A stretch of 16,926 nucleotides of DNA, from UHGV virus genome UHGV-2150566. One strand, 5' to 3'. Shown here piece by piece: positions 9,419 to 10,270 of this stretch. The position numbers and the translations under genes were made by a program. This DNA is from a virus. Position 1 is the stretch's first letter, and every line of letters begins with the position of its first letter. The notes under the pieces are model-generated. The model worked only from the letters and a program-made list of their open reading frames with translations. It was not told the DNA's origin and made no database searches.

Positions 9419-10270
9419 ATGGCAAAGCTGGACTGGAAAAAACTGGAGCAGGCATTCCGACGCGAACATGCCAGAACTGGCATAAAACTTCAGGACTGGT
9501 GTCGACAGAACAATATCAGCTATGGCACGGCTCGTCGGTACATAAAACTGCGCAAAAACTCCCCCAAAAATACAGAGGAAAGTGCGCAGAAAAATGCGCA
9601 AAAAAGTGCGCAAATTGACACTCAAAAAAGCGCACAAAAAAATGCGCATGGAGCTGATGACGAGTCCAGTAATGACGAGTCTTACGGCGATGATGGCAGT
9701 GATGAAAAATGCGCAAAAAACTGCGCAAATTCGGCAGAAACGAAACGCAACAGCAGATCGGGTAATCCTCACCCCGTTGCCCGGTTTAGCGACCGTAACA
9801 CCCACGCCGTGAGACACCGTGGATATGCGAAGTATCTTGAGGCAGATAACCTCATGGATGATGCGTCCGATATGGTGCTGTTCGATGAACTGGTGTTCAC
9901 CCGGGCCCGCGCACTTTCAGTAACAGGAACACTGAAAAAAATGTTCGCCGACCTGAAAGAGGCGGCTGACGTGGAAACCCGTGTTGCCCTGTACGACAAA
10001 ATACTCAAAGCAGAACAGGCCCTTGACCGGAATATTGCCCGTATCGAGTCAATTGAACGCTCATTGCTGACGCTGGACGTTCTGGCGGAAACAGCACCAA
10101 AACTTCGTGCTGACCGGGAAAGAATCAACGCCGCCAGAGATAAACTCAGAGCGGAAACCGATATTCTGACCAGCCAGCGCCGGGGGGTTATTACGCCAGT
10201 CAGTGACATCGTGTCATCGCTGCATGAAATGAGTAATTCGGGGAGACTGGATGACATTCCGGAAGAATGA
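9419..10270 (+). CDS. putative terminase small subunit / DNA-binding packaging protein
   Basis: 283-aa ORF, first gene after the lysis cassette. N-terminal HTH-like segment (IKLQDWCRQNNISYGTARRYI), low-complexity acidic linker with SAQK repeats, C-terminal coiled-coil-like region. TerS role inferred from position and architecture only. Confidence 0.45.
   Translation: MAKLDWKKLEQAFRREHARTGIKLQDWCRQNNISYGTARRYIKLRKNSPKNTEESAQKNAQKSAQIDTQKSAQKNAHGADDESSNDESYGDDGSDEKCAKNCANSAETKRNSRSGNPHPVARFSDRNTHAVRHRGYAKYLEADNLMDDASDMVLFDELVFTRARALSVTGTLKKMFADLKEAADVETRVALYDKILKAEQALDRNIARIESIERSLLTLDVLAETAPKLRADRERINAARDKLRAETDILTSQRRGVITPVSDIVSSLHEMSNSGRLDDIPEE
9549..9733 (+). repeat. cluster of TGCGCA(A/G)AAAA(A/G) 12-bp units (tandem at 9583/9595/9607 and 9710/9722, further copies at 9549, ~9630, 9643)
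   Basis: Read directly: ctgcgcaaaaac, gtgcgcagaaaaa, tgcgcaaaaaag, tgcgcaaattg, gcgcacaaaaaaa, tgcgcatgg, tgcgcaaaaaac, tgcgcaaattc. A palindromic TGCGCA core followed by an A-tract; encodes the SAQK repeats. Confidence 0.7.

Follow-up and report, generated by a model that had tools for sequence, protein, structure and literature searches.

Where on its DNA would a 933W-like phage begin to fill its heads, and which protein would recognise the place? The question is posed by a stretch of 16,926 bp from the virus genome UHGV-2150566 (hereafter the window, meaning the whole of the DNA analysed), which is the late region of a lambdoid, 933W-like (Sepvirinae-type) E. coli prophage resembling the Shiga-toxin (Stx) phages. 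Within its small terminase gene, terS, copies of the palindromic hexamer TGCGCA are crowded into an array, and an earlier note on this DNA had proposed the array as a candidate packaging (pac) site. That proposal has gained in substance: the array is tied to an N-terminal helix–turn–helix (HTH) domain homologous to that of the P1 protein PacA, and the mapped pac site of P1 has the same design. Our reading, which we hold at a probability of roughly 0.75, is that TerS recognises the array at 9549-9727 as a pac site of the P1 type, one that lacks Dam and integration host factor (IHF) sites, in a headful-packaging lineage of the 933W type.

The hexamer array and the constraint on it

Exact copies of TGCGCA begin at 9549, 9583, 9595, 9607, 9643, 9710 and 9722, and a one-mismatch AGCGCA lies at 9629-9634; together they span nucleotides 131-309 of terS, 3' of the codons for the HTH (residues 6-41). 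The coordinates and 12-bp registers given by the earlier note are correct, and Tandem Repeats Finder calls two 12-bp arrays, 9583/9595/9607 and 9710/9722. Other details need trimming. The 'at least eight' copies are reached if AGCGCA is counted, the exact matches being only seven; the A-tract said to follow each core is present after most copies, but not after 9643, where TGGAG follows; and the SAQK repeats describe the five copies at 9583-9643 (AGCGCA included), which read x-Ala-Gln/His, but not the copy at 9549, which reads Leu-Arg-Lys, nor those at 9710 and 9722, which read Cys-Ala. All three reading frames are used within the gene, with the T of the hexamer at codon position 2 (9549), 3 (9583-9643) and 1 (9710, 9722).

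The crowding is local. TGCGCA occurs 12 times in the window against 8.1 expected from shuffles, seven of the copies within 179 bp and five elsewhere, and the clustering of the seven has a Poisson probability of ~6e-12, or ~6e-10 when corrected for position in the window. The closest record to the terS region, that of the intact Escherichia phage PhiR12_3 (PV340552; 99.2% identity over 9300-10300), contains 32 copies in 61,979 bp, seven of them in the cluster (30,744-30,922 in its coordinates), and every other 200-bp stretch of it holds at most two. Two further features of the array may be recorded here. A promoter-like TTGACA-17-AAAAAT (10/12) lies inside it on the + strand (9615-9643); shuffles give one too, and it is probably due to chance. 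An exact 10-bp direct repeat, ATGACGAGTC, occurs at 9657-9666 and 9672-9681 (15 bp apart, coding for DES/NDES) in the spacer that separates the left from the right hexamers, the zone to which a cut on the P1 model would be assigned.

Whether the constraint is on the DNA or on the encoded peptide was addressed by permuting synonymous codons within the gene, with the protein and the codon usage kept, in 5000 trials. The shuffled versions of the window gene contained 1.1 TGCGCA on average and 5 at most, and none of the 5000 reached the observed 7. With the hexamer fixed in advance from the window, the same test in relatives gave 0/5000 for the Aeromonas, Citrobacter and Morganella genes and for three Klebsiella-type genes, and 1/5000 for a Xenorhabdus gene. 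Codon statistics were pooled over 85 non-redundant genes that share the N-terminal HTH subtype ARR[YH][ILV]K. These genes contain 501 TGCGCA, with T at codon positions 1/2/3 in 37/95/369 cases; in the Ala-Gln/His pairs of the linker Ala is encoded by GCG in 376 of 416 instances, against 370 of 1623 for the remaining Ala codons of these genes, and the codon that precedes Ala ends in T in 382 of the 416, across 12 different residues. The cluster is retained in prophages of Citrobacter, many Aeromonas species, Xenorhabdus and Morganella at 34-58% TerS identity, and also in Klebsiella phages, and TGCGCA persists at synonymous sites while TerS identity drops to 34-45%. No obvious repeat was seen in the Vibrio phage relatives at 25% identity. 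On these comparative grounds selection acts on the array as DNA and not on the peptide, as the earlier note had suspected: the hexamer is kept while the peptide changes, in three frames and with 12 residues supplying the T, which is the opposite of the outcome that the earlier note had named as a refutation, a peptide conserved over a scrambled motif.

The same data bear on the view that the array is a mere slippage-prone, low-complexity tract encoding a Ser/Ala/Gln/Lys linker, with the motif a by-product of the duplication of a 12-bp unit. Three copies do stand in perfect 12-bp tandem, disorder is predicted for the stretch of protein that they encode, and among relatives the copy number varies by whole 12-bp units, giving proteins of 283 or 279 aa in the window-type allele and 4, 5 or 7 units in the allele of the 933W type. 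Against a by-product stand the three reading frames and the irregular spacing, the conservation of the hexamer at synonymous sites across genera in which the neighbouring residues change, the count that no synonymous shuffle attained, and the fact that the motif switches along with the HTH subtype (see below). Pure slippage is thus largely refuted by the shuffle and codon statistics, and we regard it as very improbable. The copy-number-variable tract that the earlier note had offered as an alternative is real, as the comparison of alleles attests, but it accompanies function and is not a rival to it.

Less can be salvaged of the suggestion that A-tracts in helical phase bend the DNA. A unit of 12 bp is not the helical repeat (~10-11 bp), the spacing in relatives is irregular (9, 14, 12, 10, 7 bp), and A-tracts together with 12-bp phasing are limited to the E. 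coli and Salmonella alleles, the arrays of Aeromonas and of Klebsiella phages having no A-tracts. The absence of A-tracts from these relatives is also relevant to another explanation, in which the palindromic hexamers act as nucleic acid structure, either as hairpins in the terS mRNA or, on the minus strand, as hairpins followed by T-runs that terminate antisense transcription. Folded as RNA, 9540-9740 gives a z-score of -4.25, and the minus strand at 9559-9727 has six predicted terminator-like hairpins where 1.9 would be expected. Both signals, however, come automatically with a palindrome that is repeated alongside runs of A, and the stems are only 6 bp long; the terminator matches consist of pairs of hexamers plus the A runs, while in the relatives from Aeromonas and Klebsiella phages the hexamers persist and the T or A runs are missing. 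In other HTH subtypes the repeats are direct and non-palindromic (TTCGCA five times, GGTACGAAA three times), unable to pair with each other, and a search of Rfam yielded no match beyond a sub-threshold one to a miRNA. A structural role of this kind is hardly to be expected.

The HTH domain of TerS and the motifs that follow it

The 283-aa product matches phrog_370, 'terminase small subunit', in the PHROG database (E 2.5e-117) and is identical to P0001, the cluster of which has 187 member sequences; many Stx-phage records label the homologue terS or 'DNA packaging'. Searches of Pfam and of the PDB sequences with the whole of TerS gave no match. The AlphaFold model places a three-helix bundle at residues 6-41 (pLDDT 77-92 over residues 1-44), a region of pLDDT <50 at residues 46-131 and a coiled-coil hairpin with pLDDT >90 at residues 145-252, and the hexamers begin three codons past the third helix of the HTH. 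Nearly all Foldseek matches to the N-terminal model are HTH DNA-binding domains of various kinds, none of them significant and none a solved TerS, while the full model retrieved generic coiled-coil hairpins only, all with E >0.2; because no match was significant, membership in a solved TerS fold family is not shown. The Pfam matches of the N-terminal domain to HTH_29 and HTH_23 are weak. A relationship emerged from profile comparison: hhalign aligned the HTH alignment with the N-terminus of P1 PacA (…FNLNPNTARRYLRAF…) at 93.3% probability (E 2.7e-7, 40 columns), and the PHROG matches are reciprocal, with the window TerS matching phrog_1711 (E 6.3e-5) and PacA, itself a member of phrog_1711, matching phrog_370 (E 1.9e-4). 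These profile matches make the TerS HTH a homologue of the PacA N-terminal domain.

Scanning viral contigs with an alignment of the 46-residue N-terminal domain returned many further genes. The same HTH with a TGCGCA array is found fused to phrog_370, Terminase_2 and Sf6_terminase cores, and every time the cluster lies 3' of the domain. In the Terminase_2 fusions the Pfam match begins only at residue 76-94, and the HTH is therefore an N-terminal addition. The reverse test gave a concordant picture: when IMG/VR loci were picked solely by three closely spaced TGCGCA, 61 of the 80 arrays lay directly 3' of the HTH. The hexamers track the HTH and not the remainder of TerS. In the Klebsiella-type Terminase_2 TerS genes that carry the HTH (L105 1860-1903, and others) a second group of two to three TGCGCA is present ~165 bp downstream, a two-group layout that resembles both P1 and the window. 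Four loci (L191 ~2121, L223 ~1119, L237 ~10006 and L261 ~6914) have 6-7 TGCGCA in ~300 bp with no PacA-like HTH immediately upstream, and these arrays could represent another kind of site, or a pac site outside terS.

The hexamer also changes with the subtype of the HTH. Genes with the helix ARR[YH][ILV]K (n=85) contain 5.5-6.5 TGCGCA each; those with AKRYI[KT] (n=8; Klebsiella phage RothC, Pectobacterium) contain 6-7 TGCGAA/TTCGCA and about 0 TGCGCA; and those with ART[RQ]IK (n=16), which comprise the common 933W/P13374 allele and a Salmonella allele, contain 4-5 GATCA. In the Salmonella allele of the last group GATCA is constant while the peptide varies between Asp-Gln and Asp-His. Two further Salmonella alleles join the same core to unrelated N-terminal domains, the repeats behind these domains being GGTACG(AAA) in one case and TCCGTC/GACGGA in the other. 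At the corresponding loci (L188 1001-1816 and L189 1001-1834) each has its own repeat (GGTACGAAA in one, TCCGTC with inverted GACGGA in the other), in more than one reading frame. The covariation of HTH and hexamer holds at the level of HTH subfamilies, for which the helix signature is a label.

The sharpest comparison is between the window and the 933W/Stx phages (Sepvirinae), for instance P13374 and phi346, in which terS is the same gene with the same core at the same genomic position and ~90% DNA identity outside the cassette. Between the two alleles a block from ~nt 55 to nt 290, covering helices 2-3 and the left cluster, has been swapped within near-identical DNA on both sides. The HTH helix reads NTARTRIK in the 933W type and GTARRYIK in the window, and the left cluster of the 933W type is made up of 4-7 (C/T)GATCAT at 12-bp spacing (L002 3120-3460, P13374; L018-L057; L102) in place of TGCGCA. 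Each of these copies includes a Dam site, hence the 933W type is closer to P1 pac than the window is. The right-hand TGCGCA pair is common to both alleles. The window-type allele is the rare one: among 5426 complete E. coli genomes, 22 have matches to 80% or more of the query, and ~380 match the cassette flanks only, as expected of the 933W-type allele, which is ~17x commoner. An adenine methyltransferase is encoded by PhiR12_3 (L311 2167-2793), which carries the window-type TGCGCA allele, and methylation control of Stx-phage packaging is conceivable.

Such mosaicism invites a different interpretation, namely that the TerS HTH, or some other DNA-binding protein, occupies the hexamers in a role other than packaging, be it autoregulation of the late or terminase genes or the marking of a hot spot at which recombination passes the HTH cassette from phage to phage. 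The comparative evidence shows a DNA element linked to the HTH and leaves the process it serves unspecified, and the HTH with the left cluster does form a mosaic block, of window or 933W type, within near-identical flanks. We nevertheless consider a non-packaging role unlikely. The protein is a small terminase, the homologous domain of P1 PacA acts at pac, no significant promoter was found in or beside the array (one promoter-like match against 1.0 expected), and the cluster is unique in the PhiR12_3 genome, as a pac site should be.

Proposed packaging from terS and the defective prophage

If the array is the pac site, TerS would present an N-terminal HTH on a long flexible linker attached to its coiled-coil core, and the HTHs of the assembled protein would bind TGCGCA hexamers located in the DNA that encodes their own linker. 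Occupancy of several closely spaced hexamers would mark the phage concatemer; TerL would then be recruited and would cut for the first time close by, the 61 bp that separate the 6-copy from the 2-copy cluster being the probable place, after which headful packaging would proceed. Of this scheme we infer TerS binding, the role of the right cluster, the position of the cut and the direction of packaging. Domains on tethers fit the irregular spacings of relatives better than a rigid array in helical phase would. Judged from the intact relative PhiR12_3, the context seems to fit headful packaging: the nearest solved relatives of its TerL are T4 gp17 (E 4e-8), its portal matches P22_portal (E 4e-129), and the record of the 933W-type phage phi346 notes a 'circularly permutated genome'. 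PhageTerm analysis of the 933W-like phage Lys19259Vzw returned 'Mu-like' ends, with host DNA at the ends of the virion DNA (PMC7946995); such ends would be compatible, too, with lateral transduction, in which packaging would set out from a terS pac site while the prophage is still integrated.

A number of points weigh against this reading. In the literature searched we found neither mapped ends nor a pac fragment, nor data on the binding of TerS to DNA, for phages with a TerS of this family. The interval 9549-9733 contains no GATC, unlike P1 pac with its Dam-controlled cleavage; the centre of the window hexamer is CG and not AT, which therefore leaves no GATC and makes a Dam-methylation switch impossible. 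Nor does the IHF consensus WATCAANNNNTTR occur in 9549-9733 with at most one mismatch, again unlike P1, although the scan may miss a weak site. The sequences compared share ancestry, so that the pooled counts are not independent events, and the motifs other than TGCGCA were picked after inspection, which makes their shuffle P values optimistic; for GATCA the synonymous-shuffle test is weak in any case (63 and 616/5000). The third-helix signature (ARRY, AKRY, ARTR) was tried as a recognition code and dropped, P1 PacA having ARRY and yet TGATCA. The two-cluster layout is not universal, the Aeromonas relatives having a single cluster, and the right-hand TGCGCA pair is kept in the GATCAT-type 933W alleles, where it may be a relic or serve another purpose. 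The role of the right cluster is accordingly less certain than that of the left.

The setting of the array is summarised in Table 1. In a blastn alignment with PhiR12_3, window 8647-10711 corresponds to L001 8348-10412 and window 10710-15791 to L001 13920-19001, which defines a clean 3.5-kb deletion with its junction at 10710/10711; terL residues ~154 to 568 and the entire portal gene are gone. With terL truncated and the portal gene deleted, the prophage in the window is, judging from this alignment, unable to package its own DNA, while TerS and the putative site are both intact. Further downstream, at the start of an open reading frame (ORF; 15577-16425), lies a 21-bp tandem repeat (three copies, 76% matches; 15579-15643) that is unrelated to the hexamer array.

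Table 1. Features of the window in and around terS
Feature	Position	Strand	Remarks
NanS-p-type esterase gene	4884-6872
Lysozyme R gene	7818-8351
Rz gene	8650-9117
terS, small terminase subunit	9419..10270	+	283 aa, intact; ORF, phrog_370 match, position between Rz and terL
N-terminal three-helix HTH codons	9434..9541	+	Residues 6-41 (helices 6-20, 24-30, 35-41; third helix YGTARRY)
Left hexamer cluster	9549..9648		TGCGCA from 9549 to 9643, with AGCGCA at 9629
Disordered TerS linker codons	9554..9811	+	Residues 46-131; hold all hexamers but the first
Spacer, 61 bp	9649..9709		Encodes the acidic stretch GADDESSNDESYGDDGSDE; predicted zone of first terminase cut, by P1 analogy only
Right hexamer cluster	9710..9727		TGCGCA at 9710 and 9722
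Truncated terL	10251..10760	+	169 aa instead of 568; blastn against intact PhiR12_3
335-aa ORF	10750-11757		Next ORF after truncated terL
Major capsid gene	11780-12994

What would follow from a pac site of this kind reaches beyond the present prophage. We propose, tentatively and at slightly below even odds, that the PacA-like HTH with its own hexamer array forms a portable 'address label', a domain and its DNA site encoded back to back, which has been grafted onto at least four unrelated TerS cores (933W-type phrog_370, Terminase_2, Sf6_terminase and P1 PacA). Behind it, in the Terminase_2 and Sf6 fusions, stands a TerS domain that is complete in itself, and specificity would be re-set by a swap of the cassette or by a change of the hexamer (TGCGCA, TGATCA, TGCGAA and others). 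Pac sites inside terS and the hexamer design of P1 were already known; the cassette of reader and site across several terminase cores is the newer element, still a hypothesis. In the literature searched we found neither TGCGCA arrays in terminase genes nor PacA-like hexamer sites in other phages, and in the open literature searched no defined packaging site for the 933W/Stx phages.

If the proposal is true, hundreds of prophages of enterobacteria and Aeromonas, Stx phages included, would have a pac specificity predictable from their sequence, and defective prophages that, like the present one, keep terS and pac but have lost terL and portal could start the packaging of neighbouring host DNA with a compatible helper motor. 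The Shiga toxin genes of enterohaemorrhagic E. coli (EHEC) are carried by 933W-like phages, and the predicted site and its reader domain bear on where Stx-phage packaging starts, on the lateral transduction of host DNA that flanks induced prophages, and on the sharing of packaging machinery among co-resident prophages. A correspondence between HTH subtype and hexamer would provide a simple rule for the annotation of pac sites and for the design of packaging signals in phage-based DNA delivery; synonymous recoding of such a kind has already been applied to P22 (pac-wobble) and to P1 (pacA*; PMC10028697). The predicted site bears, finally, on the standing of the P1 design, which may be a peculiarity of P1 or a module of general use that can be exchanged.

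Comparison with mapped pac sites

In the phages SPP1 and SF6 the pac site (pacL-pacC-pacR) lies within the gene for TerS, the specificity subunit of the headful terminase. The intrinsic bending of SPP1 pacL resembles the A-tract idea, but the A-tracts seen here are lineage-bound and do not occur in relatives that keep the hexamers. SPP1/SF6, P22 and, on our reading, the window have in common a recognition site for a headful terminase that is embedded in the terS coding sequence. In P22 this is a single 22-bp site in gene 3 (PMC11260489), one asymmetric site as opposed to the array of hexamers in the window. For ES18, another pac-type phage, one paper describes the pac site as still unknown. 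A paper on Morganella phage Mecenats66 was followed up as a lead and set aside, as it concerns an unrelated terminase of the GpA type.

It is P1 that offers the closest parallel. Its pac site comprises 161 bp inside pacA with seven TGATCA/G repeats that include Dam sites, and packaging falls ~9-fold when the hexamers are synonymously recoded (PMC10028697). In the P1 record, TGATCA/G is found at nt 194, 201, 213 and 228 and at nt 324, 336, 347 and 375 of pacA (span 194-380), with the IHF site (256-268) and the pac cuts (276-285) between the two hexamer clusters; the hexamers start just 3' of the HTH codons (helix NTARRYL, residues 33-39) and use two reading frames. The coiled-coil core of the phrog_370 TerS is unrelated to the C-terminal part of PacA (phrog_1711), and it is in the N-terminal HTH and the DNA behind it that the two systems agree. 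Both arrays lie within a small-terminase gene, immediately 3' of the codons for a homologous N-terminal HTH; both are built from a palindromic 6-bp TG-NN-CA repeat, TGATCA/G in P1 and TGCGCA in the window; both use more than one reading frame; and both fall into two clusters, of 4+3(4) copies ~90 bp apart in P1 and of 6 (one degenerate)+2 copies 61 bp apart in the window. In the window, as in P1, the cluster is the densest occurrence of its hexamer in the sequence examined.

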